DNA of 62,463 nt, counting the filler, from Craspedostauros australis (Eukaryota): the NCBI GenBank assembly GCA_030167865.1. It is 10 parts of 10 records of this genome, joined end to end, with 100 filler letters (N's around TTAATTAATTAA, not from the genome) between each part and the next. Parts side by side here need not be neighbours in the genome. Positions count along the whole stretch, not along the records: positions 27,247 to 31,476 come from JALAGF010006619.1; 9 more parts are not named here. One strand, written 5' to 3'. Below are positions 5,961-52,600 of the stretch, in pieces. The first letter of the stretch is position 1; each line of letters opens with the position of its first letter. The notes beneath the pieces are model-generated. The model ran no database searches. It was not told where the DNA came from and saw only the letters and a program-made list of their open reading frames with translations. The position numbers were made by a program, and so were the translations under genes.

Positions 5961-6042
5961 CGTTTCGAAACGTTACGATTGAAATCCAACGTTTCCATCA
6001 CCCACCAACACAGCAACGAACATCACCACCACTACTTCNACC

Positions 6043-9000: not shown

Positions 9001-11931
9001 AAAGTCGGAGATCGACTGTTCATGGACACATCGAGTGTTCAGACGTACAGTTTCGGCCGAGGCAAATACTGGCTTCTGGTTATCGACGATTGCAGTGATT
9101 ACTGCTGGAGTTTCTTTGTGAGAGAAAAAAGTGACGTCGGATCCAAGATGGTGGGGTTATTACGGTGGCTTCAGGCGAATCAACAAGTGAGCGTGAAAAA
9201 TGTGAGATGTGACAACGCGGGAGAAAATTACTCCACGGAGAAGCAACTACTTAATGCTGGATTCGGACCGACTTTCGAGTACACCGCCGCGGCCACTCCC
9301 CAACAAAATGGTCGCGTGGAGCGAAAATTCGCGGTACTATACGGAAAGGTGAGAGCTATGCTGAACCAGACGCATCTACCGAAGAGCCCTCGAAGTAAGC
9401 TGTGGGCAGAAGCAGCTCGCACAGCCACGCAATTGGAGAACATCATCGGAACAAAGACAAGAGAACCAGCTTGCATCCTATTCAACGAACAGATCCCCAC
9501 CTACGTAGATGGACTGCGTACGTTCGGCGAAATAGGTATGGTCCACATCGGAGGTCGAACAATCAAGGCGAAATTGGATAGCAGATCCAAGCCGGCTATG
9601 TTCGTCGGATACGGTCAATCGCATGCTAGTGGTGTGTACCGGATGATGAATCTAGCTACAACGAGAATCCTAATCACAAGAGACGTGACATGGATGAATC
9701 AGTCATATGGGCAGTTCAAGGGTATTGCGAACGCCAACAGGTCAGTACTGATAGATCTGGAAGATGACGACTCTACATCGGAGATACCTTCCCCGAATAA
9801 TAGAGTAACTTGGGAGCGACGTGAGGACACCATGAAGGGAATGGAGACCGACGACGCAGATCAGAGCAGAGGAGCCGGAGTCGATATAGATACAGAAGAC
9901 GCTGCTCAAGGGCAAGATGACTTGCTCCCCACCCAAGGGGACGACGAATCGTACGATGATAACGACGATGAATCCGGAAGGGACAACGAGAAGGAACAAT
10001 ACGAGTCGGGCGAGGACGAGCCAGACGAGGTCCCAATCACAACTCCTGTCAGAGGCATGCCAAGGATGCTGAAGGCTCTCGCAGGGTTCAACAACTCACC
10101 CATTCCCAAGGAGGAACGAGACCTAGGATCCAGTGGAGAGTCAGAATCAGATGAAGGAGAGAATGAGACCACTCCAACAGGAGGACAAGATTTCCACACG
10201 AATTGGTCAACATTCAACAGAGACGTCGCAGGAATGATGATAGATACTACTCATGGTAAGATGAGACTCGATGACTTCATCACTGCGAGCCAAGGATTGA
10301 ATCAACAATCACTCGAAGAGAGGTACGAGCAAGCTAATGTCGCAATGATGCTAGACCCTACCACATTCGAGGAGTGCTGGGATCATGCAGATCCCGAGAA
10401 AAGAACGAAATGGCGGGAGGCCATCAACAAGGAGTTCAACGATATGACCAGAAGAGGAGTATGGGGAAAGATCAAGATGAACCAAATGCCGAAGGATCGG
10501 CGATGCGTGAAGACCAAATGGGTGTTCAAGGAGAAGAGGAACGGTGTGTTCCGTGCAAGACTCGTCGCATGCGGATACTCACAGATTGCAGGGGTTGACT
10601 TCTCAGCACACCACGCACCAGTGATACACGACGCAACCTACCGCGTCATGCTCACAATGAAGATGTTGTTACACTTGGACAGCATCATTATCGACTTTGA
10701 GACAGCATTCTTACATGGAGAACTCGAGGAGGAGATCTACATGCGATGCCCCAAGGGTATGAAGCATGAAGCCGACGAATGCCTGCTACTCAAGAAGACG
10801 ATTTATNNNNNNNNNNNNNNNNNNNNNNNNNNNNNNNNNNNNNNNNNNNNNNNNNNNNNNNNNNNNNNNNNNNNNNNNNNNNNNNNNNNNNNNNNNNNNN
10901 NNNNNNNNNNNNNNNNNNNNNNNNNNNNNNTGATCGGAACCTACGTTGACGATTGCTTATGCATCGGAGAGGAACAGGAACTGAAGAAGCTAGTGAGGGA
11001 TATCAAGGCAGAGCAATTCGGAATCAAGGTGGAAGAGGATCTCGAAGACTATCTCAGTTGCAAGATCATATTCAACCACGACCATACGAACTGCTGGGTG
11101 AACCAACCGCACATCATCAAGAACATCACCGATACATTCAAAGACGACGTGATGAAGCTACAGCGGTACGGTACACCAGGGACACCAGGGCAAGGCATCC
11201 AAAGGGACAGCGACTCGCCCAAGGTGGACAAGGAACGACACAGCAGGTACCGAAGTGGAGTAGGTATGCTGCTATACTTGGTGAAACACTCCCGGCCCGA
11301 CATCGCTAACGCAGTACGCGAACTGACCAAGGTATTGGATGGACCAACAGCCATAGCATACAAGGAAATGCTAAGGGTCATGAAGTTCGTGTCGGACACG
11401 AGAGAATATGGACTAAGGGTGAAGCCCGATCCATTGGAGAACGATGCATGGAGAATTGTTGTATACACCGACAGCGAATTCGCTGGTGACAAGGACAACC
11501 GCATCAGCGTAGGAGGGCACATCGTGCTACTACAAGGAGTGCCAATCATCTGGAGATCGAAGGCACAACGCAGCGTGACACTGAGCTCAACGGAAGCAGA
11601 GTATGTCGCACTATCGGAGGCCGGAAAGGAGATCCGCTTCCTCACCCAACTGATGAGAGACATCGGGTTGGAGATGCACAGACCAGCAGACGTGATGGTT
11701 GACAACGTGGGAGCAATCTTTATCGCTTCCAACCCATCCACATCCGCCAGAACCAGACACATCGATATACGACATCACTTCATTCGAGAACTGATTGCGA
11801 ACAGAGAGGCTAGAGCCCGGTTCGTACGTTCAGAGGACAACATCGCAGACGGATTCACCAAGAATACAAAGAAAGAGATCTACGACAGACACAAGGGCGA
11901 TATCATCCAGCTAAGGTCAGCACTGGACTAG
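6043..11931 (+). CDS. Copia Gag-Pol polyprotein (Gag, 2x CCHC, extra domain, PR, IN, RT, RNase H)
   Basis: CRNCGAYGHKKADC and CNYCGKKGHKIVQC knuckles; WLGDSGAS protease; HHCC plus RCDNAGE/PQQNGRVER integrase; FRARLVACGYSQ and YVDD RT; YTDSEF, SSTEAEY and NIADGFTK RNase H; PR-IN-RT order is diagnostic of copia. Confidence 0.95.
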   Translation: MSSXLFKSDRVVVFDGKRSSWKGWSIKFITRATRKGLGDFYLMDYDDVVVKPAPFSSDPLAPIPKTEEGASEPKKVSSLTRAERAEYKKMLAKYAFEELTVAINHETXXXXXXXXXXXXXXXXXXXXXXXXXXXXXLERIYEQRTAPMKAKLLAQLNGMRLKKGENPDTFLTEMEVLRNRLGNTGINMDMQQYHMLVLNALGKEYEMDVKIIELRFLGKEETMTIEDIRETMSATYDGRNIKGGNSNRGGNNSKEEMALAAIGSFKGNCRNCGAYGHKKADCRSAAKKGNGKNKSKGQGNGGGKPKFNGECNYCGKKGHKIVQCFKLRAAMKEADSANVATDGMDGADDVALTASDEMMCVFINEDATEDENVINEKLNKITEFANQDRNVTTQDRVISHDDDVMMDDMAFITIDVDGTASFESGTSNAERAWTSEDMAKHSPREYGYYGPPINDGEMIKDELFSSDVETEDPDDVVTEHHEGTTDEEDADVTEMAMTGVDNDNIDRAINEPVYSLPSRPSALDDMIERSSRRDMNNGWCPLCLKRGPLYAWCVDCPNIPFFIQLANEPRDAVPRNEGERMVRREVLEETSGMLFETARCSLSNVLSPNDVRSELSLICFDAVHDIATLRLTGVEPRSLYYLMHQIGVRGALDICVNAYRMNGMLESVRLQPIQQALIGAMSSTASEQLMWMHHPSINGVRDYRTHCELTLYSDANGHEMAMVIGDLDDVDTRKSTIAPXXXXXXXXXXXXXXXXXDANGHEMAMVIGDLDDVDTRKSTIAPDRHEVNTWLGDSGASCHLTNNDEGMTNVRTANHSIKVGSGRYLRATKVGXXXXXXXXXXXXXXXXXXXXXXXXXXXWVNLLSINKALENGFDISNRGVIMSLEKKGQRIRFDRIIATHSGFVSGVNMIAAPAHDDQANVGVSTKKPIDINKIHKMLXHVDTYTISRTAGRYGWNVTGKLNACVDCAIGKSRQRGLTKTLQPRAKKVGDRLFMDTSSVQTYSFGRGKYWLLVIDDCSDYCWSFFVREKSDVGSKMVGLLRWLQANQQVSVKNVRCDNAGENYSTEKQLLNAGFGPTFEYTAAATPQQNGRVERKFAVLYGKVRAMLNQTHLPKSPRSKLWAEAARTATQLENIIGTKTREPACILFNEQIPTYVDGLRTFGEIGMVHIGGRTIKAKLDSRSKPAMFVGYGQSHASGVYRMMNLATTRILITRDVTWMNQSYGQFKGIANANRSVLIDLEDDDSTSEIPSPNNRVTWERREDTMKGMETDDADQSRGAGVDIDTEDAAQGQDDLLPTQGDDESYDDNDDESGRDNEKEQYESGEDEPDEVPITTPVRGMPRMLKALAGFNNSPIPKEERDLGSSGESESDEGENETTPTGGQDFHTNWSTFNRDVAGMMIDTTHGKMRLDDFITASQGLNQQSLEERYEQANVAMMLDPTTFEECWDHADPEKRTKWREAINKEFNDMTRRGVWGKIKMNQMPKDRRCVKTKWVFKEKRNGVFRARLVACGYSQIAGVDFSAHHAPVIHDATYRVMLTMKMLLHLDSIIIDFETAFLHGELEEEIYMRCPKGMKHEADECLLLKKTIYXXXXXXXXXXXXXXXXXXXXXXXXXXXXXXXXXXXXXXXXXXIGTYVDDCLCIGEEQELKKLVRDIKAEQFGIKVEEDLEDYLSCKIIFNHDHTNCWVNQPHIIKNITDTFKDDVMKLQRYGTPGTPGQGIQRDSDSPKVDKERHSRYRSGVGMLLYLVKHSRPDIANAVRELTKVLDGPTAIAYKEMLRVMKFVSDTREYGLRVKPDPLENDAWRIVVYTDSEFAGDKDNRISVGGHIVLLQGVPIIWRSKAQRSVTLSSTEAEYVALSEAGKEIRFLTQLMRDIGLEMHRPADVMVDNVGAIFIASNPSTSARTRHIDIRHHFIRELIANREARARFVRSEDNIADGFTKNTKKEIYDRHKGDIIQLRSALD

Positions 11932-17522: not shown

Positions 17523-17566
17523 NNNNNNNNNNNNNNNNNNNNNNNNNNNNNNNNNNNNNNNNNNNN

Positions 17567-17578
17567 TTAATTAATTAA
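17567..17578. other. Artificial scaffold linker TTAATTAATTAA (also 21573, 23102, 27191, 31521, 43689, 46599, 49615, 59317)
   Basis: Identical 12-mer with stops in all six frames, embedded in N runs nine times. Confidence 0.97.
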
Positions 17579-17622
17579 NNNNNNNNNNNNNNNNNNNNNN
17601 NNNNNNNNNNNNNNNNNNNNNN

Positions 17623-18449: not shown

Positions 18450-18977
18450 TGTTATCTCGTTACTGTACACAGCGAAATCACACGAGTCCTTCAAGAGAGA
18501 TCAAGTCTTTCAGGACGAGGGTGACAAGCTGGTGAGTGAAGACACTGTTTGGGTTGAGTGACTTCTGTTCTTATGTTATCTTCATTGAGTTGTATCTCAT
18601 GTTGTTGTCTTCAAGGTCAGCTCTCGGTCATTGCACCTCTGCGATCTTGTTCTGATGTGGAGATGACCCATGATGTGGCGATGATGTCTTCTGTGTCGAC
18701 GTCACTCATCACCGTTCCATGGCTCTGTCGATTCCACATTCCATTGATGATGCTTAAGGTCGTCGGGTGTGTTGTCATTTCAGGTTTAGTTGGGAAGTAT
18801 ATCAGGTCGAATTGGACATCACATGTTTGCCGGGTGGTGGCCAGACCGAATCTCTGATGTTCNNNNNNNNNNNNNNNNNNNNNNNNNNNNNNNNTGTCTG
18901 AGGAAAGCATCGTTTCAGCACATACAAGGACAGACTAATCAGAAAACGAATCAGGTGAATAAAGCGTTGTGCTAATA
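18450..18977 (-). repeat. 5' LTR of CoDi element (TA...CA, ~528 bp)
   Basis: Matches 59585-60110 in the opposite orientation with identical boundaries. Confidence 0.9.
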
Positions 18978-20590
18978 TCCAGGATGTGTTGCGGCGATGC
19001 AATGGCGCAATCTCGTGGGACGATGTTGCACGCGAACTAGCAGGAAGGGACAACGTCCAATGCGTTTGCGCAGAAACCATTCGAACATACGTGATGGGAT
19101 TGGAGGGCAGCGAATACCGTTCTACAACAATGCTCCCCAAGATCCAGGGCGACATCAAGGTGAAGCGCAACATCTGGGCCAAGGACTTCTGTGTGTTCTG
19201 GGAATCAGTTGAGCTGTTCCCGAATACGCAAGTTGTTGTCCACATGGACGAGAAGTGGTTCTACTCTATTGTCGCTTGGCGCAACCTCAAACATGTGCCC
19301 CAAATGGGAGTTAAGCCTGTGAAGCATCCTGTGCACCACAAATGCCACATCGAAAAGACCATGGCGATTGCATCAACAGCGTTCGCTCCAACAGACAACT
19401 GCTTTGGGCAAGGAGGAAAGGCGTATCAGGTCAGCTTCGAACGTGTTGGGTGCATGGTCCGAGCGCAGAAGACCACGTACAAGCGAACTTGGGTCTCGCC
19501 AACCAAGTACAAGCACCTTCCTGATCCCAACAAAATCTCTTGCAAGAAGGGTGAACTGTACTTTCAACCACTGGAGATGATGGGCAGCAAGGAATCAGTT
19601 GGTGCGCCTGATAAGCCCAAGCCAAAATACAGCCTCAAGAAATTCTTCTGCGAAAAAGAAATCCCCGCACTGGATTCGCTCGCCAGCAAAATCAAGGCCG
19701 AAACGGGCAAGAACGTGGTGATTCGGTACCAGATGGATGGCGCGGGGCCACACAGAGACATGGAACTGCTCAGGTTCATCAACGAGGAGTTTGACAGTCG
19801 CGGATGGCACCTACGATTCCAACCATCGAATTCTCCCATCACGAATGTGAAAGACGATGCAATATTCCCAGCGATGTCGAAACATGTGTCAGCACATCAA
19901 GGTAAGTACCACAGGAGCCGCATGTTCACCACTGATGCGTTGTGGGGCGCTTGTGGAACCTGTTGGGAGCAATTTGGGCTGGACAAGGTGGCTCGCGCGT
20001 ATGTTCGCCACCATCAGATTGCCTACGCAATTTGTGCTGCGGAAGGAGGTGACGAATTTGTGACAGAGCGCAAGGGCCTGAGCATGAATGTGCGGAAACA
20101 ATCGTTCACCAAAACTGACAAGGATGGCAACAAGATTGGCGTTACCGTGTCTCACATGGACTTCGTGTTGGAGGAGGATGAGGCAACCAACAATACTGCC
20201 AAGAAACCAGCTGCAACAGGCAAGAAAGACGAATCAGCTGGCTTCAAATATGCCAAGCCCGACATCGAAGGTATGTACAATGATGCCCTCAAGGTGATGG
20301 CTGTCAGTGGTCTGCAATGCCTTAAAACGAACCTGCCAACAACCAGCAGCCTCATTCCGTTGCTGGAGAAGCAAATCGTCGCAACCACCAGAGCCAATGA
20401 GGAGGCTGAGCAACAGAAGAAAGGCAAGAAGAAGAAGACGCCCAGCAAGAGCAAAGCCAAGATCATTGAGCCTCACAACAACAACACCGAGGCAGCACCC
20501 ACCATGAACACATTCGAAGTGGCCTGTCTGAGTGGCAAAACCGAGCATCGCAGCAAAGCAGAGCAGGATGCCAACACAGCAGAGATGTAA
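18978..20590 (+). CDS. Tc1/mariner transposase, plant-mariner (DD39D)-like, here DD38D; 5' end cut by LTR insertion
   Basis: VHMDEKWFY, YQMDGAGPH and FQPSNSPITNVKD motifs; 38 residues between the 2nd and 3rd Asp; frame open from the LTR junction. Confidence 0.85.
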
Positions 20591-21503: not shown

Positions 21504-21628
21504 GCACTGGAACACAAGAGATTACTCANNNNNNNNNNNNNNNNNNNNNNNNNNNNNNNNNNNNNNNNNNNNTTAATTAATTAANNNNNNNNNNNNNNNN
21601 NNNNNNNNNNNNNNNNNNNNNNNNNNNN

Positions 21629-23057: not shown

Positions 23058-23429
23058 NNNNNNNNNNNNNNNNNNNNNNNNNNNNNNNNNNNNNNNNNNN
23101 NTTAATTAATTAANNNNNNNNNNNNNNNNNNNNNNNNNNNNNNNNNNNNNNNNNNNNGAGAGGTCCAAGGATAAGCTCAAGATGATTTCATTCCTCCAAA
23201 TTGATCAGTGCAGTGCAGATATAGGCCGGTTTGACCCACAGCGGCGTTCGACGATCGGTGTCATCGTGTGTACGAGGAACATGAAGGTTTCAACCCCTTA
23301 CGCAAGTAAAGAAAGCGTACAAACCCACGGAATATGCCGATGGAAAGGCCTTGGATGGGTCCCAATCGGTTGCATGCCTTCGGACTGGTCATTCCCATGC
23401 ATGAGTAGCAAAATCGCGAAACACCGAGG

Positions 23430-27126: not shown

Positions 27127-27532
27127 GATCCTCCTGGCATCAACTCNNNNNNNNNNNNNNNNNNNNNNNNNNNNNNNNNNNNNNNNNNNNTTAATTAATT
27201 AANNNNNNNNNNNNNNNNNNNNNNNNNNNNNNNNNNNNNNNNNNNNGGTGGAATACATCCTCTTCTGTCAATGCCGCAATGTGTCGCCCCCCGGTTGAGC
27301 CCCTGTGGGGGTTGCGTTTCGAATTCAGATGCTTTCGCAGGGTCTTGCCTGACGCTGCCTCGCGGGATGCAGCAGCGGAGTCCGCGTATGCAAACTCCAA
27401 CTTCAGCTCCTACAGATTTTGTAGCACGATTCCATAGGATTGAAGTAGATCAGGTTTGAATTGTGTGGACATCGATCTTATGGTGTTAGCGGTTGCATCA
27501 CCTGATGGTAGGAGGAGGTGGGTTCGAGAGGA

Positions 27533-30500
27533 TCAGAGGAGAAAAGCAAGAACAGTTTGAGTGAGCACCGCGAATCGACTTTTGAAATTCATGGCAGGAG
27601 CTCCATCCATTTCATGCTTGAACGTACCAATTACAATCATTGCACCTGTCACCCCAAAGACGAAGGCATGACAAAGCAGTTGAATCATCTCTGATTTCTT
27701 TTCGAACAATGCCCTCCATTTGTTGTCTTGGAGATCCACGAACACATGACTCTTTCCCTCCGTCCCATGCTCCCAATCGGCCTTCCGCTGGTGCCGTCTT
27801 TCAAGATCTTCTGTGTCTGTCGTTGCCCGAGTCTTGATCTCCACAACAAAGGCTTCATCGTCGCTGTCGTCCTCTGGATCACCGACGATTGCAAGGAAGT
27901 CGACGGAGGCGCAGGCGTACGGTGCATCAGTGTTTCGCACCACCCCCACTTGGTACGTTGCCTTCACTTGCCTTCCCTCGCCGCCCACTCCAACACAGTG
28001 GAGGGCCTGCTTCATGAGGGGAGCTTCGTTTTTGTGGCCTAGCTTGGCGAGCTTTCCGGCCTTGCCCCGAACCGACTTCATGAACCACGATTGTAACATG
28101 AGAGTTGTGAGGTCGTGGTCAAGCTTGTGCATCCACTCTGAAGTGGTGCTTCCCGCCTGGAAACTGGATGGATGGTCAGGCTCCTGCTCGATCTCCTTCA
28201 TCACCAGGGCAACCAATCTCTCCACAACCTTCTCTCGTGGCATTTTTGTTACATTGGTTTTGGGGAGACGAGCCTTGAGGTCTTTCTTGAGGGAGGCGTC
28301 GCTGATGGCCACGAATCGCCGTCGAACCTTGGCGTCATCAGCGAGGATGGTGCGGAGCATTTTGCATCGTGTGGCTCTGGTTCGCTGGGCCTTGCTGCGG
28401 TAAAACATAGCCATGAGTTCGATGAACTCTTTGTCAGGGAAGGCATCCTCTTCAGGGGCATCATCGCGGAGAGAGGAGAGAAGTGCAATTTCAACATGAC
28501 GGGAATCGAAGGTGGGAGATGGGAGTTGGGAGTATAACTCAAGTGCGCGCAATCTCGCTTTTTCTGCTTGCAACGCATTGTGGTACTTCGCCTTCCGACC
28601 AAGCACGTCATATCCCAAGTAGCGGCCAATGCACTCCCATGCAGTTTGATTGAATATGGTGGCATTGTCGGTGTTGCACCACTCTCCACTTTCAAGCACC
28701 TTCTGTATCATGCTGTAGGTGGAGGTGCTCGTGAACGCAAAGCGGCAGTGGACGAACCACAGATGGTCACCCTGGCCACAGGTGAGTCCATCCACAGGCA
28801 GATCCCACACCATATCTGCCCAACGCTGTTTNNNNNNNNNNNNNNNNNNNNNNNNNNNNNNNNNNNNNNNNNNNNNNNNNNNNNNNNNNNNNNNNNNNNN
28901 NNNNNACGAGCGTGTTGGATTGACAGTGCATGTTTGGAAGAAGTGTGGGTAGTGTGGGGATCTTCGATTGTTCCCATGCTTGTCCTCCACCATGTCTTGG
29001 TACTTTTGTTGGTCACTGGCGTTGGTGAGGGTGAGGTCCCACTCGAAGCCACTCGATCTTGTGGAGAGTGCAAGTTCAGTTTGTTCGTTGAGGCGGTATC
29101 CATAGCATGTCAATTGTTGTTTGCCAATGCTGTTGGTGACAGCGCTATGCACCATCCTTGGCCCCTTCCTCCCAATATTCATCTGGAGTGTACCCTTGCC
29201 AATGGATGGGCCNAAGGTGAATGGTAGGTATCCGGCTCGCATGTGTGTACCCTCCAGATTGGCACCCCTGGTAGTGAGGAAGGCGGTAGTGCTGTGGCAG
29301 TTGTATCCTCAATCTGTCATGAGGGTTAGATTTCGAAAAGAACCATCTGGTTCTTTTAGTTGGGTGAACAACCAATAGGTGTCATCATCGAACCCATCTC
29401 GGCAAGCAGCCAACCCCACAACAAGTCCAGAAGCAGACTGGACAAGAGTGTTCAGGGTTAATCTGAAGGAANNNNNNNNNNNNNNNNNNNNNNNNNNNNN
29501 NNNNNNNNNNNNNNNNNNNNNNAATGGAGATGCCACCCCTCTGCAACAAAACACACAATGCTGTTCGTCACTTACCCATTACGATTTGCATGAGTATGTC
29601 TCATGCCAAGCAGATAGCTGCTCTCCGCACGGCTGCTGCAATGGACCTTGTCATCATCCAATGTGACAATCCGATTCGGGCAACGATGCCGAAGACAAAG
29701 AATCTCAAGCGTCAAGTTGAAAGAACTTTCCAATTCGGTCCAAACAAAGCGATGACCATTCCAAGAGACAGGGTGTCCATTGCGTCGAATACGATCCCAG
29801 AGATTGACGTAATGCTGTCTGGTGGGAAAGCTGGGAAGCGTGGCAGCGTTGCCGCCATCGTAGAGCCGACAAACGGTGCAGCTTTCCACCATCTGTGATG
29901 TGATGGCATAGAGGAACTCCACGTACTCAGCATATGAGAAACCCAGCCCACTTGGGCCAAATGCACGGATGAAAATGGGAGATGTGGGGCCCAGCACATC
30001 GTGGATCAAGTCATGGGGTGTTGGCACGTATGGTGGAGACCCAGGAGGACTCTTGGGGAAGTGCTGCAAGACAGCTGTTCGCAGTGAACGAATCTCTTCC
30101 TTTGCATGGAGAAGAGCAAGCTTGTGTGCTTCTCCAACAGTCACTTTTGTTGCATGGTCGTAGGCCGAGAGCACCTTCCACTCCACAGAGATCTCCCGAC
30201 TCCCTTTCTTGGGAGGGAGGACGATGCGATGGCTGTAGCCAGGAATCGAGCACGGTTGGACTCCAAAATCGCCAACAGGATCTGGAAGCACCATTGTAGG
30301 CACCGCACCCTCATCATCACTGTTGACACAGATGCCATCTCCTTCTTCATGGGTGTGTTTGCCTGCATCACCCATTCCATCATCCAAAACTTGTCCAAAG
30401 GGATGAAGCTGCTGGGATGGAGAGANNNNNNNNNNNNNNNNNNNNNNNNNNNNNNNNNNNNNNNNNNNNNNNNNNAATGGACCTTGTCATCATCCAATGT

Positions 30501-31355
30501 GACAATCCGATTCGGGCAACGATGCCGAAGACAAAGAATCTCAAGCGTCAAGTTGAAAGCACTTTCCAATTCGGTCCAAACAAAGCGATGACCATTCCGA
30601 GAGACAGGGTTTCCATTGCGTCGAATACGATCCCAGAGATTGACGTAGTGCTGTCTGGCAGGAAAGCTGGGAAGCGTGGTAGTGTTGCCGCCATCGTAGA
30701 GCCGACGAACGGTGCAGCCTTCCACCATCTGTGATGTGATGGCATAGAGGAACTCCATGTACTCAGNATATGAGAAACCCAGCCCNCTTGGGCCAAATGC
30801 ACGGATGAAAATGGGAGATGTGGGGCCCAGCACATCGTGGATCAAGTCATGGGGTGTTGGCACGTATGGTGGAGACCCAGGAGGACTCTTGGGGAAGCGT
30901 TGCAAGACGGCTGTTCGCAGTGAACGAATCTCTTCCTTTGCATGGAGGAGAGCGAGCTTGTGGGCTTCTCCAACAGTCACTTTTGTTGCATGCTCATAGG
31001 CCGAGAGCACCTTCCACTCCACAGAGATCTCCCTACTCCCCTTCTTCGGAGGGAGGACGATGCGATGGCTGTAGCCAGGAAGCGAGCACGGTTGGACTCC
31101 AAAATCGCTAACAGGATCTGGAGGCACCACTGTAGGCACCGCACCCTCGCCATCACTGTTGACACAGATGCCATCTCCTTCTTCTTCATGGGTGTGTTTG
31201 CCTGCATCACCCATTCCATCATCCAAAACTTGTCCAAAGGGATGAAGCTGCTCGGATGGAGAGACGTTGCCATGGCCGATTGTTGCAACTGGAGTGGAAG
31301 CTGTGGGCAAGTCATCATTGGCATTGGGAGCATTGGGCGGACGAGAAGATGCCAT
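27533..31355 (-). pseudogene. piggyBac-like DDD transposase fused to a YqaJ/lambda-exonuclease (PD-(D/E)xK) domain with a SAP-like insert; inactivated, N-terminal part duplicated
   Basis: VTLDDDK (~29650, ~30490); LMTD*GY (DRGY with stop, ~29310); GANLEGTHMR; TCGQGDHLW...FAFTST; GHKNE; ASVD; VVEIKTR; QLLCH. Confidence 0.7.
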
Positions 31356-32734
31356 GATGAAGGTGATGTATCGAAGAAGGCAAGCTGGAAGAAGAAGGCA
31401 GTATGGGGGATGCTGCGAATGACAAGCAAGGAGGTGCGAGGTTGGTGATGGAATGAAATGAACCACAGCAGGCAAGNNNNNNNNNNNNNNNNNNNNNNNN
31501 NNNNNNNNNNNNNNNNNNNNTTAATTAATTAANNNNNNNNNNNNNNNNNNNNNNNNNNNNNNNNNNNNNNNNNNNNGCAAAAGATCGAAAATTGTCTCGA
31601 AATTTGCGTCCTGACGCATCTTGGGTCCATTATCGCGACGAAAAATCACCGTGGATATCAGCATCCATAGAATTGGATCCCTTCCTGACGGATCAAAGAC
31701 TTCAAACTTCATGTCCTTACTCTTTGGAGTGTTCTTGGAGTGATGTGGCTGATCGGATCTCTCAAAATGGCCTGCCGAATGCATAGATATGCAGAAGACT
31801 GTACAGTGCAATGCGCACCACTCAGTATCACGCGATTCACAGATTTGGATACCAGCATCTCTTCCAGATGGATTTAGATACCCACAAGCTAATAATATAC
31901 CCATTGGAATGCTCTCCATGCTCTTATCTTGTTAGAATGTAATATTTTTGTCCTTTCCATTGAACGTGTCGTCAGAATACGATCCACAGCGCAAGGAATT
32001 GGAGCAAACAGATGGATGATGTACACATCTACAACTAAGGTAGCCATTTATTCCTTTTACTAGATGCATTAAATTTTAGTGGACTATTTGATTGCATTCT
32101 ATGGCGGTTATGCTAAACATGTATGATGTGGCTTATACTTTTCGTGTGTAGTGCAGGTAGTCTATATTTATACCTAAACTTGCGAGTCGATGTGAGATGT
32201 TGTGTCCACGGGACGTCGTATGGACATTTGGACGTTTTGGGTCGCTAAGAAACACAAAACAGGCTGGTTGATGCAAATCGGCACTTCAAAAGGGCTGGTT
32301 AATGAATTTCCTCATGTGAAATGCGATAGGCCTCTATTGTGCCACGCAGTTGTTTCTGGTTGTTCTACTACTGGCTTCGCGTTAGCTGACGCTCGTGTTC
32401 GTTGTGTAACGCCATTTCAACGGTTTCACATGTATCCTGGTTTGCCGAACGACCCAAAGAAAACAGAAGAAACCAGAAGAAAACGAGTCACGATCAGCAA
32501 GTCGGGACACGATCAGCAACAAAGACACAGCAAATTGTCCGACCCACGAACAACACCACGATCAAAAGACCAAGGAGGACACTGCAACAACAATAACGAC
32601 GGCAACTTCGACATCCAGTGGTTGCATACGACTACTATTATACTCTACTAAACAACAACACAGAGACATTGGGAGTACTATACACACCGGATCCAATCTG
32701 CTCCTCCTCTTTCCAACACAAATCACAGCAACAG

Positions 32735-32766
<32 letters not shown>

Positions 32767-33180
32767 CACGCGCGACCGCGCATAAACAATCATCCTTCCC
32801 ACCCCACGATTCTCCTACCCTCCGCCATTTGGCCAACTCGTCCACTCGGTCAGCCCGCTTTCGATCAAACGATCAGATCTCGTGCCGTGCCGTGCTGTCT
32901 GTCCTCTTCTTCTTCTCCTTCTCCTGAGCGAAGAGTCGAAACCCAAGCGCGCGGAGACTGGAAATAACGACGTTCCACACCCTCTCTCAGCAGTGCCTCC
33001 GACACAACTGTTACACCCACGGATCCAGCCATCAAGCAGGGAGACAGCCTTCCCATCGACACCAACAAACAGATTCAATAGCCAACCACAAGCAACCAAC
33101 CACGAGCAACCAACCACGAGCAACCAACCACGAGCAACCAACAAAGAACGAACGTCCAGCACCCAGAAGCCAACACGACG

Positions 33181-36100
33181 ATGATCCGAACCGCAATGTC
33201 AAAAGCGGCAGCCAAAACCGCATCCATGCCTGTCTTCGCCCACACCTTGATCAGGACAACTCGCATGCCCGACTCACGCACGTTCTCCGCCGTGGCCAAC
33301 AAACTTCTCCCTCCCATGGCGACAGGGACGGCGACAGCGATTAATGGCCCCATGCTGGGACCTGCCCCCTCAGCTCCACCTTTGCTATCCCCGCAGCGAC
33401 CATCCACCACTTCCAGATTCATCTCTTCGGTGCCTTTCGCACCAGCACCGGCCTCATCCTTGCCATTGGTGCCAGCTTCGCCAACCCAATGCCAACTGCA
33501 ACGATGGTGGTCTGCTTCCTTTCTCCGTGCGGCATCCACCAACGGCAATGGCCGATCTCTGCCAGAGCTGCCAACAAATGTCAGTGACTACGAGGACCTC
33601 TTTAACACTTCTGCATTCTGGAATGCCAGTTTGAAAAACGAAGATGTCGAGAAGATGCTGAACAAGCATTTTAGCATGGCCGCTCCCCCGACTGACTTCT
33701 GGAACACCGTGGTCGGGGACAGGCAAAGCTTCGTCGACACCGCTAAAGAAGAACACAACCGTGTTGGCAATTTGGAAGGCATGGCAGACGGTTTCCTGCG
33801 CAAGAGTGCCACCGACCCCATGAGTCTATGGATCAAGTCCCCAGACGACAACAACGACATGAACAGAAAGAACGTCTTCAAGTGGGTTCGATCATCCTTG
33901 AAGAAGAAACCTGAGAACGTTCGCGAGGCAATTCTCAATGACTTGGAAGAGATTTCCAAAGACAAGGTCAACGATGTTGAACAGGTAAAAGAACTGCATT
34001 GCAACAACACCGTGAAAACCTTCTATGTTGGTCATGCCAACTTTCGGCACAAGGGAGAGGCCCAAAAACGACCACCGAAGGTCTTTCTCAACAAGCCAGA
34101 AGCAGACCAGGACGACAAGGTGTGGGTTTATTACACCAACAGCGGCAGTGGCAAGACTGTCGAACTTGCTGCCAGTGGATACCTGCGAGGAGGAGTGATG
34201 AGCATCATGAACAAGGTTTCCAAGGACATCCCCACTCGGGACAACACAGAATCTCGAAAGACTGAATGTCGCAAGGCACTCATCTCCTGCCTGGACGACA
34301 TTGTGAAAACAAACAAGGCTACATTCGAAACACTCATCAAATCAATGAATGCATGGGAAAAAACTACTGAACCGGTTCGAATCGTGTTTTGCATCGATGA
34401 GGCATCTTCATGCCCAAACCTCCTACGCGCAATCATCAGCGAATACGAAGCTCTCAGCGGAGAGTTGGGAAATTACATCGCAAGTGGCTTCGGCGGCGCT
34501 ATTGACACCACAAAGAAAAATGCGATTCAAGTTCTTTTCTCCGTTGCAGGCACGGGGGCGTATCAAGGCTCGTCTGGATCTCTCGGTGATAATTATCAAT
34601 ATCTCACACCCACTGGCAACGTAGTGGGGGAAGACCTGTACAAAACACTCACATCCGAATACGAGGACAACGATCACAACAAGATTGGGACGCTTCCGGG
34701 ATTCAAGGACTTGCAAGATGCCCCGTTTCTCTGGATCATCATGCAGTATAACGCAAGGATGGCTTCCATCCTCATTGACCAAATGTACAACTCGCAACTC
34801 AGGTACAACCATCCACACGAAGAAACCAGACTCATGTCGTTGGTGTTCGAGAAGTACGTTCGCAGCAACGGAATGCACTTCCTTTGGCATTCCCAGGGAG
34901 ATTCTGACCAGTCGAAGTTGAACACAACAAGCAACCGACTCCATGTGGCATCAATGGGGCTTGCCACCTATCTTTATCCACAACCTGTCACGATTCCAGC
35001 TGGCGAGGATGAGATTAGCGAGCTCGCGCTGGGACTCGACTACGGCATCAGGTTCCAGTCGTTTTCTGCCCAAGAAGGAAAGGCCAAAGCTGAAACTAGG
35101 TCTGGATCTGGATCTACTGACGCTGATGTTCCGTGTGACAGCAACGTCACCGGCAACAAAGAGAAAAGGCGTCGAACGCTTATGGACCTTCTTGTTCGAG
35201 AGTGCGGATTGGTGACGCAAGAACAGTTTTCCAAGAAGACAGAGGACAACGTACTGGAACAGCCGTTCATCGTCAACGAAGCGATGCAACTGCTCTGCGT
35301 CTGGCTCATGCAGGGTGGCCAGAGATTAAAGAGCACTGAATCGCTGTTGGGGACGACTCCATTTGCATTCGAGGTGCTGTCGACCCAGCTTGTGAGCTGC
35401 GCCATCTCTGCAGCCATGACTGTCCAGGTTGAACACCGTCCGAAGGTCCACGAGATCTTGACTAAGTCCCTCGGAATGTTTCGGAACAAGTGCATGCTGG
35501 GAAAAGAAGAAAAGCCGTTTTTGGACCCGTATGTCGAAACTAGTTGGGCAGCGCTGGAGAATGTGATCCCTGTTTCAATCAAGTGCGACCTTGCAATGGA
35601 CGGTATGTATCACCACAAATCTCCGATGTTGCTGAAGGCCAAGCCAGAATCTAAAGGCGATGACAAGTTGGATACAAGCAAAACGGGTGGGAAGACGCCA
35701 GCAACAAGAACGAGCACCAAACCGAAGAACTCTGAGGCCTGGGCCAACGTGGCGACGATGGCAATTAGGAAGGGCGACACCTTGGATCTTGACTCTCTTA
35801 AAGACCTCGAAGAAAAGAAGGACTTCGATGCCGCCGTGGCGAGCAGCCAACAGGAAGAGACCCTCACCATGGACCGAGACATGTTGATAGGTCTCACACA
35901 GATGAGACAGAACAAGGACTGTGACGGTACACCACAGTACTTCACTCCATCTCTGTGCAGTGTGGCGGAAGGCAACAGTAACCTGGCCGATGGAACCGTC
36001 TCCTTCATCGGTGCCAAGTGGAACGAACGCGAAGAGAAATTGGAGGACCACGCAATGTACACCATCTGTGTCCAAGCAAAGGATATCTTCGGGAAATCCT

Positions 36101-36423
36101 TGAAAATGGAGAAGGTCCACAACAACCTGAACAGAGTGAAACATGATCTCAATAACATTCCGTTCGGAGAGAATCGCATGTACTGTGTTGCATCTCGGGC
36201 TCATCTGGTGACGAGAGCAAGGGTAAATCTCGACAACGGTTTCACTGATGGCAAACGGAACGACGACATGCCGAAACTCGAAACGAAAATATCTCCTTTT
36301 GTCTCCTATCCCACCGACGGAACTAAGATTCTCTCTGGTGTAATGGAGGCAATTGACGAACGTCGCAACAGGCAGGAGAAGATCGTGAAGCATGGCGTGA
36401 TGCTGAAATACGAGGAAGAGTAG
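33181..36423 (+). CDS. P-loop NTPase + PD-(D/E)xK nuclease protein (Crinkler/RHS-like architecture) with long mitochondrial-type presequence
   Basis: Intact 1080-aa ORF; Walker A-like NSGSGKT (~34138-34158); Walker B IVFCIDEA (~34381-34404); C-terminal LADG...ICVQAK; first ~125 aa rich in R/S/A/T/P with almost no acidic residues. Confidence 0.7.
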   Translation: MIRTAMSKAAAKTASMPVFAHTLIRTTRMPDSRTFSAVANKLLPPMATGTATAINGPMLGPAPSAPPLLSPQRPSTTSRFISSVPFAPAPASSLPLVPASPTQCQLQRWWSASFLRAASTNGNGRSLPELPTNVSDYEDLFNTSAFWNASLKNEDVEKMLNKHFSMAAPPTDFWNTVVGDRQSFVDTAKEEHNRVGNLEGMADGFLRKSATDPMSLWIKSPDDNNDMNRKNVFKWVRSSLKKKPENVREAILNDLEEISKDKVNDVEQVKELHCNNTVKTFYVGHANFRHKGEAQKRPPKVFLNKPEADQDDKVWVYYTNSGSGKTVELAASGYLRGGVMSIMNKVSKDIPTRDNTESRKTECRKALISCLDDIVKTNKATFETLIKSMNAWEKTTEPVRIVFCIDEASSCPNLLRAIISEYEALSGELGNYIASGFGGAIDTTKKNAIQVLFSVAGTGAYQGSSGSLGDNYQYLTPTGNVVGEDLYKTLTSEYEDNDHNKIGTLPGFKDLQDAPFLWIIMQYNARMASILIDQMYNSQLRYNHPHEETRLMSLVFEKYVRSNGMHFLWHSQGDSDQSKLNTTSNRLHVASMGLATYLYPQPVTIPAGEDEISELALGLDYGIRFQSFSAQEGKAKAETRSGSGSTDADVPCDSNVTGNKEKRRRTLMDLLVRECGLVTQEQFSKKTEDNVLEQPFIVNEAMQLLCVWLMQGGQRLKSTESLLGTTPFAFEVLSTQLVSCAISAAMTVQVEHRPKVHEILTKSLGMFRNKCMLGKEEKPFLDPYVETSWAALENVIPVSIKCDLAMDGMYHHKSPMLLKAKPESKGDDKLDTSKTGGKTPATRTSTKPKNSEAWANVATMAIRKGDTLDLDSLKDLEEKKDFDAAVASSQQEETLTMDRDMLIGLTQMRQNKDCDGTPQYFTPSLCSVAEGNSNLADGTVSFIGAKWNEREEKLEDHAMYTICVQAKDIFGKSLKMEKVHNNLNRVKHDLNNIPFGENRMYCVASRAHLVTRARVNLDNGFTDGKRNDDMPKLETKISPFVSYPTDGTKILSGVMEAIDERRNRQEKIVKHGVMLKYEEE

Positions 36424-41133: not shown

Positions 41134-43598
41134 TCATTCGAATGTTCTCGATGTGTCAAGGTACGACTTCTCATGTTCTCGTTGCAAGTCGGCCTTGATG
41201 TTCTTGGTGAATCCGTCGCTTGTGTTCTGCTCGGATTTGACAAAAATGATTGGGATGGTCTTGTTGGTTACCATGTTCCTCACGTAGTGATGGCGCACGT
41301 CGATGTGCCGCGATTGTTGGGATGTTGATGGGTTCTTGGCGATGAAGATCGCTCTGACGTTGTCCGCACGGACCTTGATCGGTGTCTTCATTGGGACACC
41401 CACACTCTCGAGTAGCTGCACGACGAAGAAGATTTCCTTTGCCGCTTCTGAGAGGGCAACGTATTCTGCTTCGGATGAGCTGAGTGTGACGGCCTTCTGT
41501 GCCTTGGATCGCCAAAGGATTGGTACCTTGCACAGGTATAGGATGAACCCTCCTACGCTGATTCTTGTGTTCTTGTCCCCTGCATATTCGCTATCGCAGA
41601 AGAGCTCCATGTCCCAGCCGTCGTCGTCTGGGCATACTGGATGGATCTTCAATCCATGGTGCTGCGTATCGATCACGTACTTGATGATCCGATACATCTC
41701 CTTCATTGCGGCCTTGGTGGGCCCAATCAATACCTTGGAGAGTTCCCTCACAGGGTTCGCGATATCTGGTCGCGAGTGCTTGATGAGAAAGAGTAGCATA
41801 CCGACGCCTTGGCCGTATTTGGCATGTTCTTCCGGTCCGACCTTCTGTAGTCCGTTATCTTCGGATGGTCGTACGATGATTTGACCCGGGGTTCCCCGTG
41901 TCCCGTAGCATTGCATCTTCTCAACCTTGGTTCCAAATTCTTTGATGAGATGTTGGATGAGATGTGGTTGACGCAATGTTGCTCTAGTCTTGTCATGGTT
42001 CAGTTCGATGTTGCAGCTGAGGTAGTCTCCGAGTCCGCGCTCGATTGTCACCTTGAATTTGCTGCCTTGGATGTCCTTCAGGAAGGTCTCCAGTGCCTTG
42101 GAGTCTCCACAGCAGAAGCAATCGTCCACGTAGATGGCCACGATCATGCTTCCTTCGTTCGTCTTCCTGTAGAACAGGCACGGGTCCGCTGCGCTCTGTT
42201 CGAAGTTGATATTCTTGGGGGTCGATACCAACATCTTGAACCATTGCCTGGCGCTCTGAACAAGTCCGTAGATTGGCTTGTGTAGGGTCAGGGCTTCGTC
42301 TGGTTGATGATCCATTCCGTTGGGACAGTTCATGTAGATCTCCTCGTTGAGGTCTCCATGTAGGAATGCCGTTACGACATCGACGAGTGCGCAGTCCATC
42401 TTCTTGATCAGCATGATCACCATCATGACCCGATAGGTCACGTCATGAATCACTGGTGAGTAATGCTCTTGGAAGTCCACTCCTGCGATTTGTGAGTAAC
42501 CACATGCAACGAGTCGTGCTCGATGTGTGCTGTCGTGCTTCACCTTGAAGACCCATTTGCATTTGCAGCATCTGCGGCCGCATGGGATGGCGTCTCGTTT
42601 GATCTTGCTGTACACCTTGCGTGTATCCATTGAGTCGAACTCCTTTTTGATGGCTGCTCGATATCCCTTTCGATGGATGGGATCCGGGTGATTGAAAGCT
42701 CCATCGAATGTCGTTGGTTCGATGTGTTTCTCTGGTTCCTTGTTCTCGTCCTGCATCGACAGTCCAATGTCGATTGCCGGTGTCTCAGTGATGATTGCGT
42801 TCATTCCGTATAGTCCAGTTGTATTGTAGTGGGTGATCTCGATCTCTTCTTCTTCGTCTACGACTTCCTCGTCATCTGTAGTTTCTTTGTTGGATTCGTC
42901 GGTTATCTTGTCACTGAGTTCGTCACTATCTTCGTTGAATGACGACTCACTCGCATAACCTTCCTCCTTTTGGCCTCGTTCGTTGAAGTCTGCAAGCTCA
43001 CGCAGAGCTCTAGGAATACTCTTCCCTGTAGTCGGTTTGGGATTAGCTTCTCCCTTCCTGCCTCGTGCTTCGTGACGTCGGATTCTCTCCTTTCTAGCTA
43101 TGTCACGCTTCCTTGGTTTGCTTGGTGGAGGTCTCGATGGTGTATCATGTGTAGACCTCGCTGGTGTGTTCGGAGGAGTGACGTCTGTATCATCGTCGGC
43201 TTTGTTGCTGGATGGTGGGATCTCGTCATCCTCATGATTGGATTCGCTCCGATCTTCGTCGTCGTTATGGATTAGTTGAGTTACTGCTTCATCGTCCTCA
43301 TCATCCTCATTGTTGCTGTCTGATAGGATGTGATACTTGTTCGTGTCAGCAAAAGATACTCTCTTTGCTTCTGATTGTTGACGTATTGCCGTTCTTGGCA
43401 TTGCTCCCTTCCGTCCGATGGTTGTGAAGCCGTCTGCGTCCGTTGTTCCTGCTTTGCTGGATATGTTTGGTGCTGGTGCCCAGCCACAGAACTGTCCGTG
43501 TGATTGGTTGAGCCATTTGATGTTGCAGAAACAGACCAGTGACTTGGTTGATGGTCTGTACATGTTGTACACTCCTGATGCATGTTGGTGTGCATATC
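41134..43598 (-). CDS. Copia Pol fragment (IN C-terminus, RT, RNase H), related to but distinct from the 6043 family
   Basis: HRARLVACGYSQIAGVDF, IYVDD, FCDSEY, SSSEAEY and RHIDVRHH motifs; cut at 43598 by an LTR. Confidence 0.92.
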
Positions 43599-43644
43599 TG
43601 TCAGGAATCGAGGGTACGCTTTTACCAAGATACCCATGATTGCC
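43599..43644 (+). mobile_element. 5' end of an LTR of the 5207 family, inserted in the copia integrase region
   Basis: TGTCAGGAATCGAGGGTACGCTTTTACCAAGATACCCATGATTGCC, 2 mismatches to 5207-5252. Confidence 0.9.
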
Positions 43645-43744
43645 NNNNNNNNNNNNNNNNNNNNNNNNNNNNNNNNNNNNNNNNNNNNTTAATTAATTAA
43701 NNNNNNNNNNNNNNNNNNNNNNNNNNNNNNNNNNNNNNNNNNNN

Positions 43745-46189: not shown

Positions 46190-46654
46190 AAGTCCAAAAT
46201 TGTCTCAGGAGACCAAGCGGATTCGAGGGGTGCCAAAATTGGTCTCCTCAGACCAAAATCAAGCAACGCGACGTTTTATCGCGATGGCATTTTCTTCGAC
46301 CACCTCGACTAAAACTATTTGTTCGCGCTCACTTTTTTCCCCCCTCATATCGTTTTTTCCGATTTCTCACAATATCCTGGCATGCCCTCCTATTTACTAT
46401 GGCTCAATGCTTCTCCTGGATGCATTGAGCCACTTGCATCTCATCACAGTTCTTCGTATACATATGTTCGTTGCATGCTTATCCATGTCCTCCACGCTCT
46501 TCACAGGACATGATCGTTCCGCAGCGTTCTTCCTCTTGCATCACAATGATTTGTNNNNNNNNNNNNNNNNNNNNNNNNNNNNNNNNNNNNNNNNNNNNTT
46601 AATTAATTAANNNNNNNNNNNNNNNNNNNNNNNNNNNNNNNNNNNNNNNNNNNN

Positions 46655-49570: not shown

Positions 49571-49670
49571 NNNNNNNNNNNNNNNNNNNNNNNNNNNNNN
49601 NNNNNNNNNNNNNNTTAATTAATTAANNNNNNNNNNNNNNNNNNNNNNNNNNNNNNNNNNNNNNNNNNNN

Positions 49671-52600
49671 AGCTCGCCACGCACTACCGGCAGCACTGCC
49701 TGGACAGCTTCGCGTTCTTCGTCTGCGGCAAGTTCGATCTGCATCAAATGGAGGAGCCCTACGCCGGCATCCGTAGTGCGATGGGGGAGCTCATGGAACA
49801 GATCAAGTTGCTGCCGCCCAACGACGTCGTCGGCGCAACCATGGACGATCCAAGGAGGGTCTCGCGCGTGCATCAGGCGCTGGTCCGCAATCTGTCGTCC
49901 AGCGAGCTGAGGACGCTGCACAAGATCGTCCCTGGTATGTACAAATGGATGACGGGCGAAGATGCCGTCACCGTCGGCACGCGGCAAAGCAAATGTGCGG
50001 ACCTCACCAGCAGGGATGCAACCAGCGACGATGTCAACAACAGCAATGTCAACAACAGCAATAATGATGACAATAGCGACACTGCAGCCATCATCACGAA
50101 TACGGAGCTGGTTGGCAGTAACTCCATGATCCAGCAGAAGTCGCTTGCAACCCTATCGATAGGATCCGACGGTGAGAGGAATCCTGCCGCGGCGGAGGGA
50201 TACAAGGAGAAGTCCGACAGGATCAAGCACACGCTCAAACGGTTCCTGCAGATCATTTGCCAACACAGCCCGCTTGTGCTCATGATGGATGACATCCAAT
50301 GGGCCGACAAGGCGTCGCTGGATCTGATCGAAACGTGGACGCTGGATGCTGAAATCCCGTCTTTGATGATCGTGGGATGCTTCAGATCCAACGAGCTGGA
50401 GCAGAATGAATCGCTGCAAGGCATGATCGGCACTCTCGAGAACTTGAAGCGAGAGCGAGCCATCCGCATCATCAACATCCATATGAGCGACCTACCCCAG
50501 CACAGCGTCCGGCGGATCCTCGTCGAGATCCTGCTGCCGGACAAGGATGACGATGTCAACGGCCTCGCGGATATCGTCCATCGCAAGACGGGCGGCAACA
50601 TCTTCTTCGTCAAGCAGTTTCTGGAATCGTTGGTTGATGACGATCTGCTGTGGTTTGATGAGGTTGGTGGGATGAAGTGGCTCTGGGAGGAACGCAAGAT
50701 CATCGCCGAGTCGTCGGCCACGGACAACATTGTGGATCTGATGAAGCACAAGCTGCATCGCGTTGATGATGCTCACCAGGCACTCCCGATTGCAGCGTGC
50801 CTCGGATGCACGTTTTCGCGCAAGAGGTTGATGCTTGTGATTCGGGCATTTTCGATCCATTCCGATCACAGGGTGTTCTTTCGAGATCTGCTGATTGAGG
50901 ATGACGCAGCGCAGCCCAAATTGGTTGGTGCCGAACCAAGACGGAAGCAACGGCGGCGGCAAAGTGTCGATCTCACATCGCATAAGAGCATACAAAAGGT
51001 CCTCGATACCTGCGAACGCGAAGGGCTCATCGAGCAACATTCCCAACATCAAACCAAGCGTGCCAAGTCGAAAACCAAGACCGAGAAGGCGCGAGCGGCA
51101 TCAAACCAAGCGCGAAACGATGATGATCGATGCACCTTCATCCACGACAAGATCCAGGAGGCGGCATTGGCGTTGGTACCCCAAGACAAGTTATCTGAGC
51201 TGCAGCATAGGGTTGGTGACATCCTGCTCTCCTCCTTCTCCAATGGCGAGATGGAGGATCACGACATCTACATGGTCGCTGGCCTCATCAACACGAGGCT
51301 TGACCTGATTCCAGCCACGGCAGAGCAATCCAACCGCCGCATGAGGATCGCCATGCTCAACTACAAGACGGCCCAGCTCGCCGTGGAGTGCGCCGCGTTT
51401 CAAGCTGCGTTGCGGTACTTCGCAACGGCCATGCAGATGCTGCCTACCAATCATTGGAAGAGCCATTTCGCCGAGAGCTTGGATATCTACGCCTCGGCAG
51501 CTGAGTGCGCATACCTCATAAATGACTCCAACAAGGCCAAGGAGTACTGCTCGGCCGTCCTATCGCTTGAGTGCCCTCTGCTTCACAAGGTCCGAACTTA
51601 TCATATCTTCCTAGAAGTCCTATTCACGGAATCTCAAGCACACAAGACGGTCAAGACGCTACCAACGTGCATCAACCTGCTCAGCATGCTTGGTTGCGAA
51701 CTGCCGAAGAGCAGCTTCAGCAGAAAGATGCGACTCATCTTTGGCCTGTCGAAGATGAAGCGAGTGGCATCAAAATGGACAGTGGAATCCTTTCGAAGCA
51801 TGCCAGCGTCACAGGATCCAACGCAAATGGCAATCGTCAAGACCCTCAACAAGTCAATCGTCATCGCCTTCGTTCTCGAGCCGGACCTATTTCCTTTGAT
51901 CATCGTCGAGTGCGTACGCAGGACCTTGAAGTACGGAATCATGCCATGCTCAGCACCTGCTTTTAGTTGCTTGGCCTTACTCGTAGGGTACTTCATGGGA
52001 GACTTCGTAACAGCAGTCAAGATTTGCAAGGTTGCTCTCGCCATAACAGATCGCGAATCAAACCAAATTTGCAAATGCCAGGTGATGTACACTGCTTGCC
52101 TGGGCACCATGCACTGGGTCAGACCTCTGGGGGAGATACCAGCGCCTTTTTGGGAGGCTTACGAGCTGGGCATGGCCTGCGGGGATGTCGACTCGGCCAT
52201 CCGGGCTCTCATGTACTATTGGCTAGCGAGATTCTACATCGGAGTCCCGCTGCCTCAGCTCGATGAGGAAATGCTGAAGTACTCGAAGGTCATGGAAGAC
52301 TTTCAGAGGGCGGACACAAGAAGCATCATCAACGTGACTTGGCAATCAATACGGAACTTGCGCGGTCTCTCGGACAATGACATCAAGCTGAAGGGAGACA
52401 TATTCGACGAAGATGCCTTCTTCCGAAACGCCGCGGAGGAAAACGACAATTTCGTGTCGCTTGTGGTGATGTCATGTCGGCAAACGCAGGGCGTTTTCCT
52501 CGGCGAGTACGAGTACGGAGCTTCGGCATCGGTGAAAATCTTCGATGAGGAGCTGAAGGTATTTGCTGGATCGTTCTTCCTGCCGCTTGCCGCGTGCTAT

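Follow-up and report, generated by a model that had tools for sequence, protein, structure and literature searches.

A 62-kb window of the genome of the diatom Craspedostauros australis (the window being the whole stretch of DNA analysed here) contains a draft scaffold of 4230 bp (27247-31476, minus strand, linker-bounded) on which transposase and nuclease motifs follow one another in what is probably, at a chance of about three in four, a decayed and partial copy of a piggyBac-type DNA transposon with an inserted resecting exonuclease. On the minus strand, an N-terminal segment starts from an ATG at 31355-31353 and extends over 30476-31355 until it ends at an N gap, and a second copy of this segment can be found at 29554-30425, the two being 95.7% identical over 789 bp (30476-31264 versus 29640-30425). 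The LDDDK motif, marking the region of the first catalytic Asp, occurs twice (30483-30497 and 29647-29661). The second half of the transposase core (28906-29380) displays D*GY, where a TGA codon at 29309-29311 replaces the Arg of DRGY, followed by GTHMR (29237-29251) and a beta-rich insertion-domain region. Regarding the nuclease, its N-terminal lobe motif TCGQGDHLWFVHCRFAFTSTS is located at 28721-28783 and its C-terminal lobe at 27628-28039, the latter with the PD-(D/E)XK residues intact and harboring GHKNE (28025-28039), ASVD (27899-27910), VEIK (27833-27844) and QLLCH (27668-27682). An insert of about 190 amino acids (aa), containing a SAP/HeH-like helix pair (28181-28306), splits the nuclease between the two lobes. 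All the motifs listed in an earlier reading made from the DNA without database searches, referred to below as the sequence-only reading, are found on the minus strand where it had placed them.

The same reading had the region end at 27533. However, the TGA at 27533-27535 can be taken neither as the gene end nor as a lesion, as it sits within a spliced GT..AG intron of 126 nt (27502-27627, minus strand), and the gene runs on to the end of the scaffold through a next exon (27247-27501) with homology up to position 881 of the 1201 positions of a family hidden Markov model (HMM), the frame being still open where the scaffold ends. A contig of run X1, the kind of which was guessed as RNA, joins 27499 to 27626 with ends reading GT..AG on the minus strand, and the family HMM score is 209.5 bits with the intron spliced out versus 182.9 bits unspliced. 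A contig of run X1 tracks the window down to 27921 and then shows 70 unlike letters; the transcript product P0001, from a named diatom, also diverges at 27921, a site next to GTACGC (27920-27915, minus strand) and similar to the confirmed intron's 5' splice site. The divergence may correspond either to an alternative splice removing the nuclease active site or to a rearranged copy.

Three in-frame stops can be found in the window copy, namely TAA 29572-29574, the TGA of D*GY and TAG 27410-27412. The possibility that the TAA opens a short intron was considered and rejected, since the family alignment passes straight through it, and it is thus a stop. The first two catalytic Asp sites are present, the codon after the second Asp being a stop, and so are nuclease residues D311, E331, K333 and Q384 (numbered on a 432-aa translation from 28831). 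The reading frame shifts between the pieces, the motifs do not lie in a single continuous frame, and the scaffold is interrupted by N gaps at 28832-28905, 29472-29522 and 30426-30475 as well as by three single Ns. The two N-terminal copies adjoin the 50-N gap and may represent two alleles, two copies of the element placed in tandem by the scaffolding, or a genuine duplication. At face value, the window copy is a decaying copy.

Protein family, predicted fold and the inserted nuclease

When 1.84 billion representative proteins are scanned in full by HMMER with the 591-aa frame 27536-29308 as query, 66 related proteins are recovered at E ≤ 1e-3. Among the 20 proteins for which clusters were looked up, two members are named, both from diatoms: a 183-aa transcript product of C. 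australis, 95% identical to the window, and an "unknown protein" of Seminavis robusta. Going by these named records, the putative transposon family is placed in diatoms. About twenty relatives reach 1150-1350 aa as uninterrupted open reading frames (ORFs), coming from several independent sources, and 16 long members can be aligned end to end with 20-27% identity and an identical order of motifs. This order starts with an N-terminal region, DDDK-H, DNRxG, DRGY, GTxxR and PFTYD; continues with a beta-rich stretch ending in ST....WD, then LTxxQGxxxWFxxRxFxxTSS; proceeds through an acidic linker and a helix pair to GHxxE, SxD, ExKxR and QxLHH; and closes with PLPPxxRxxPxxxxxWNxxKGxSDTxTKL followed by CxxC...CxxCxxxxC...CxxxxH. 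The family HMM (1201 positions) was built from 16 full-length relatives and from nothing in the window. It matches minus-strand frames of the window at 30474-31019 (the first N-terminal copy, HMM positions 43-219, E 2.1e-22), at 29554-30183 (E 2.8e-28) and at 27323-29380 (E 1.7e-76), and the match between window and family is far beyond chance. A word-seeded homology search with the 432-aa nuclease gave no match at E ≤ 1e-3 and a language-model search with the N-terminal 283 aa gave no usable match, the family being found by the full HMMER scan alone; language-model searching also pointed to YqaJ clusters (score 0.91, 21 of 30 matches), which is taken as a lead only.

Relatives of 550-800 aa lacking the first two Asp were considered as a separate short architecture. 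This was rejected, two of the four inspected (P0039 and P0049) beginning in or just before the N-lobe motif; the short architecture was also sought in genome contigs and viral contigs, where none was found. Such short relatives are probably ORF-calling artefacts at introns. An intron is located just before the SDT motif in one subfamily, and some gene calls read through it; this read-through intron corresponds to a 27-aa low-confidence insert in the full-length relative P0057 (residues 839-863), and the intron splits the ORF of the metagenome locus L009 (at about 3880-3900).

Conservation was counted over the non-gap rows of the 53 relatives. The DDD of DDDK is kept in all 22-23 rows, the Asp of DRGY in all 25 and the Asp of SDT in 41 of 42, while the seven Cys/His positions of the Cys-rich end are invariant over 32-41 rows. 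On the nuclease side, the G of GHxxE is found in 52/52 rows, its H in 48/52 and its E in 52/52, followed by the D (50/51), the E and K of ExK (51/51 and 48/51) and the Q (49/49). Both active sites are thereby retained in members with only about one residue in five in common.

The fold of P0057 (1155 aa) was modelled from 53 aligned sequences, with a mean predicted local distance difference test (pLDDT) score of 80.6 and a predicted template-modelling (pTM) score of 0.68. Foldseek ranks piggyBac (6x67_C, E 8e-6) before Tn5 (E 1.4e-5), piggyBat (E 9.8e-4) and lambda exonuclease (E 7e-3), and a structure search independent of Foldseek over 48,161 representative chains returns the same order, with other DDE enzymes scoring much lower (ISCth4 7.6, Mu 7.2, integrases about 7 and Sleeping Beauty 5.6). 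By root-mean-square deviation (rmsd), both piggyBac-family structures rank first, at 3.5-4.1 versus 5.3-8.8 for Tn5. The piggyBac-like character proposed earlier for the N-terminal part is in this way borne out on the predicted fold of a relative. In the model, D83-85 lie in a strand (78-88), D168 follows a strand (163-167) and D867 opens a helix (865-874), and this predicted secondary structure fits the RNase H-like order with three catalytic Asp.

With respect to the position of the nuclease, its range in the P0057 model falls within the range matched by the transposase, which indicates an insertion rather than a terminal fusion. Since the full-length relatives continue past the nuclease with the third Asp and the Cys-rich end, the insertion is inside the catalytic domain, where the second catalytic Asp precedes the nuclease and the third comes after it. 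The sequence-only reading had put the nuclease in the place of the Cys-rich C-terminal domain of piggyBac and had seen no obvious third Asp. Neither holds for the relatives: the scaffold stops first (HMM coverage 43-881 of 1201), and the window accordingly displays neither the third Asp nor the Cys-rich end. In profile searches of Protein Data Bank (PDB) sequences, the Cys-rich end of the relatives gives weak matches only, to PHD-like fingers (E 0.06-0.08).

Structure modelling and the conserved residues support the C-terminal part being a predicted PD-(D/E)XK nuclease of the lambda-exonuclease/YqaJ type, with lobes about 190 aa apart as earlier proposed. The predicted lambda exonuclease fold includes its N-terminal segment. 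An Arg of the N lobe is kept in 31 of 32 rows; provided that the structural alignment is ungapped there, it would presumably fall on the phosphate-binding Arg of lambda exonuclease. No match was found with PHROGs on the window pieces, and phmmer of the nuclease against PDB sequences gave chance-level matches only. As regards the insert, four of the 53 relatives have a Pfam match to SAP at E ≤ 10, the best at 9.8e-6, and five have one to Rho_N, the best at 2.6e-6. The helix pair of the window itself has no Pfam SAP or Rho_N match. The Rho_N match of P0034 aligns to window residues 176-217, which are the helix pair motif, and the model of the window has helices at 178-188 and 199-216, at the SAP-like pair, in agreement with the SAP/HeH-like pair that had been read from the window.

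Termini of metagenome relatives and the surrounding window

A scan of metagenome contigs with the alignment of a nine-member subfamily yielded 12 loci, among which L007/L008/L009, L003/L006 and L011/L012 are repeat samplings of the same places. Between copies 65-76% identical, DNA similarity starts sharply upstream of the ORF and stops at one point downstream, and a single motif, ATATCCATGTTGA(G/C)(G/A)A, stands at both limits with its orientation inverted. Exact copies of the 11-mer ATCCATGTTGA number 10 across the 12 loci, and every one of them (10/10) is at such a terminus. Zero-mismatch termini are found at four independent left ends (L001, L004, the L009 group and L011) and two independent right ends (the L003 and L009 groups), and the motif is present with 1-2 mismatches in L002 (both ends) and L010. 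Subterminal AATGAATCCC repeats can be found at both ends, and the L009 element measures about 5.7 kb (581-6313). The tetramer at the boundary is ATAT at eight of nine ends and ACAT at the remaining one; the two loci with both ends (L009 and L002) have ATAT on each side. It could be a 4-bp duplication next to repeats beginning with CCATG, or a part of the repeat itself, no empty sites having been found.

Two small ORFs are located downstream of the transposase, in L009 at 4927-5367 (-) and 5658-6092 (+) and in L003 at 4589-5146 (-) and 5415-5786 (+). They are kept between copies about 69% identical in DNA, at 52% (E 6e-29) and 69% (E 2e-66) identity, and neither belongs to a Pfam family. An inverted repeat of 81 nt with 98% complementarity occupies the two extremities of the L011 contig (1-81 and 8454-8534), far outside the element termini; it could belong to a composite structure of greater size or have arisen during assembly.

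At ≤3 mismatches, the window shows 7 matches to the terminal motif of the relatives where 6.8 are expected, which is no enrichment. A one-mismatch copy of the 14-base terminal motif at 6598-6611 (-) lies inside a copia ORF and is probably due to chance. The window consists of ten small scaffolds separated by nine artificial linkers of the form N44-TTAATTAATTAA-N44 (17523-17622, 21529-21628, 23058-23157, 27147-27246, 31477-31576, 43645-43744, 46555-46654, 49571-49670 and 59273-59372), across which adjacency is meaningless, and no further copy of the element was found on the nine other scaffolds. Copia-type retrotransposon ORFs can be found on these scaffolds at 5986-11928 (+), with RVT_2, a copia gag domain and a retroviral SH3-like domain, and at 41137-43641 (-), with RVT_2 at E 1.7e-40. 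Owing to these reverse transcriptase ORFs, the window can be regarded as repeat-rich, poorly assembled DNA. It also includes an ankyrin-repeat ORF (55927-56919, -), a 1142-aa ORF with a weak AAA_16 match (49673-53098, +), and two ORFs of 1112 aa (33085-36420, +) and 542 aa (18962-20587, +) without a Pfam family.

Proposed mechanism and rival explanations

When intact, the transposase of the family is a protein of about 1200-1350 aa with an N-terminal region, then an RNase H-like core with the Asp of DDDK on strand 1 and the Asp of DRGY after strand 4, then a beta-rich insertion domain and an inserted nuclease of the lambda-exonuclease/YqaJ type. This nuclease, about 500 aa long, is in turn divided by an acidic linker and by a putative DNA-binding helix pair resembling SAP; after it come the rest of the core with the third Asp (SDT) and the Cys-rich C-terminal domain. 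In piggyBac, excision and integration by the DDD site are established, and lambda exonuclease is a processive 5'-to-3' enzyme acting on 5'-phosphorylated ends. By inference, the DDD site would excise and integrate the element in the piggyBac manner. The built-in 5'-to-3' exonuclease would most likely resect the 5'-phosphorylated strands at excision breaks, with the SAP-like pair holding the nuclease on DNA, and resection would block simple re-ligation and lead to homologous recombination from the copy that holds the element. A more specific version, in which a piggyBac-derived lineage altered its transposition chemistry by acquiring the lambda-exonuclease module in its catalytic domain, uses an ATAT target in place of TTAA and, through resection and the restoration of the donor copy by recombination, makes cut-and-paste effectively replicative, or else cuts the second strand itself rather than forming a hairpin, is possible and is put forward tentatively, at well below even odds.

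Several observations weigh against a piggyBac-type transposon with an inserted exonuclease. Profile matches to PF13843 and PF09588, on which the sequence-only reading relied for confirmation, were not obtained: Pfam gives no match for the window pieces at E ≤ 1, these two families included; none of 40 relatives matches either family at E ≤ 1e-3; and at E ≤ 10 over the 53 relatives PF13843 is found once (E 0.01) and PF01609 twice, PF09588 not being among the 25 of 56 families listed. In profile searches of PDB sequences, lambda exonuclease comes up no better than at E 0.86, and piggyBac does not come up. As the profile searches failed, both assignments rely on predicted structure and conserved residues and, for the transposase half, on a distant relative, the fold having been tested on a protein 20-25% identical to the window and not on the window itself. 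Some of the in-frame stops may be due to errors in a draft of low quality. The termini and the third Asp are seen in relatives only and, like any target duplication, lie outside the reach of the window scaffold. Lastly, of the inverted termini and target sites that copies of the element were expected to reveal, the former can be found in the metagenome relatives, whereas TTAA stands beside the terminal motif in 0 of the 9 ends examined.

The latter result bears on an alternative role for the nuclease. With the same architecture, the nuclease may cut or trim the second (5') strand at the element ends in the way of TnsA, thereby replacing or assisting the hairpin step, the way in which TnsA and TnsB share the work in Tn7 being established. 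The nuclease directly follows the insertion domain and adjoins the catalytic core, and termini without flanking TTAA imply that the end chemistry may differ from that of piggyBac; this role is nonetheless considered unlikely. It can also be asked whether the core is piggyBac-like at all, or rather a separate lineage of the IS4/Tn5/piggyBac group, possibly a superfamily of its own. The precedence of both piggyBac-family structures over Tn5 in rmsd, the near-invariant Asp as third catalytic residue (41 of 42 rows) and the conserved Cys-rich C-terminal end present in the relatives all speak against it, which makes a separate lineage rather improbable.

In other eukaryotes, piggyBac genes are known to have been domesticated, and the family could represent a host gene derived from a transposase and no longer mobile, of which the window would hold a dead paralogue. 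The conservation of both active sites in members 20-25% identical and the existence of transcripts would be expected of such a gene, but similarity between copies of the relatives ends at inverted termini, decayed copies can be found both in the window and in L009, and the window copy is found amid small scaffolds rich in repeats, so that domestication is given little credence. Finally, with three N gaps in the scaffold and a duplicated segment adjoining one of them, transposase and nuclease might be two unrelated genes juxtaposed by scaffolding. This is hardly conceivable given the uninterrupted ORFs of 1150-1350 aa with the same order from several independent sources and a predicted fold that puts the nuclease inside the transposase span; transposase and nuclease form one gene in intact relatives, as the sequence-only reading had it, and the separate genes that would have contradicted it were not seen.

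Relation to known systems and meaning for the family

piggyBac is a major genome-engineering tool, the structure and mechanism of which are well studied. Compared with piggyBac and piggyBat (6x67, 9c0f), the diatom family has a nuclease and SAP module of about 500 aa before the third Asp and is not recognised by PF13843. In the metagenome relatives, the termini are flanked by ATAT and not by the TTAA of piggyBac, and the elements of the subfamily hold two further conserved ORFs. Compared with lambda exonuclease, YqaJ and LHK-Exo (1avq, 3syy), the nuclease is embedded in a transposase instead of being free-standing, and it is split by the acidic linker and SAP-like pair, without a PF09588 match. 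As for Tn7, where TnsA and TnsB likewise associate a PD-(D/E)XK nuclease with a DDE transposase, TnsA is a restriction-endonuclease-like separate subunit, while the nuclease of the diatom family is of the exonuclease type and fused in.

Another likeness can be found in the ISL2EU transposons of the PHIS superfamily, the second ORF of which codes for a YqaJ-domain protein with a function that the authors call unknown (PMC4122938, PMC4482050). Both are eukaryotic cut-and-paste transposons with their own YqaJ-type nuclease. However, in ISL2EU the nuclease has an ORF of its own, next to that of a THAP-bearing PIF/Harbinger-type transposase, whereas here a single polypeptide combines it with a piggyBac-like core. 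Some 20 full-length relatives have the nuclease within a single ORF, which does not fit the comparison with ISL2EU that had been proposed, and THAP and DDE_Tnp_4 are not among the 25 of 56 Pfam families listed for the 53 relatives at E ≤ 10. In diatoms, an uncharacterised transposase element "weakly related to piggyBac" has been reported from two genomes (Maumus et al., 2009; PMC2806351), the available part of this paper mentioning neither a nuclease nor an architecture. It may be the same family, to which it can be likened by description only. In the parts of the literature covered by the search, of which Repbase, Dfam and supplements were outside the scope, no description of a piggyBac-YqaJ fusion was found; no piggyBac-like transposase with an exonuclease domain was found in the literature searched either, and ISL2EU was the only relevant case of YqaJ in DNA transposons within the portions covered.

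With this family, long proteins from diatoms and metagenomes that fall outside Pfam can be given a name, and its interest for specialists of transposons is real, though the window holds only a broken fragment. If the proposed architecture is true, the insertion-domain region would tolerate a module of about 500 aa and transposons could carry a break-processing enzyme inside the transposase itself, and the role of the YqaJ protein of ISL2EU would become testable in a single polypeptide.

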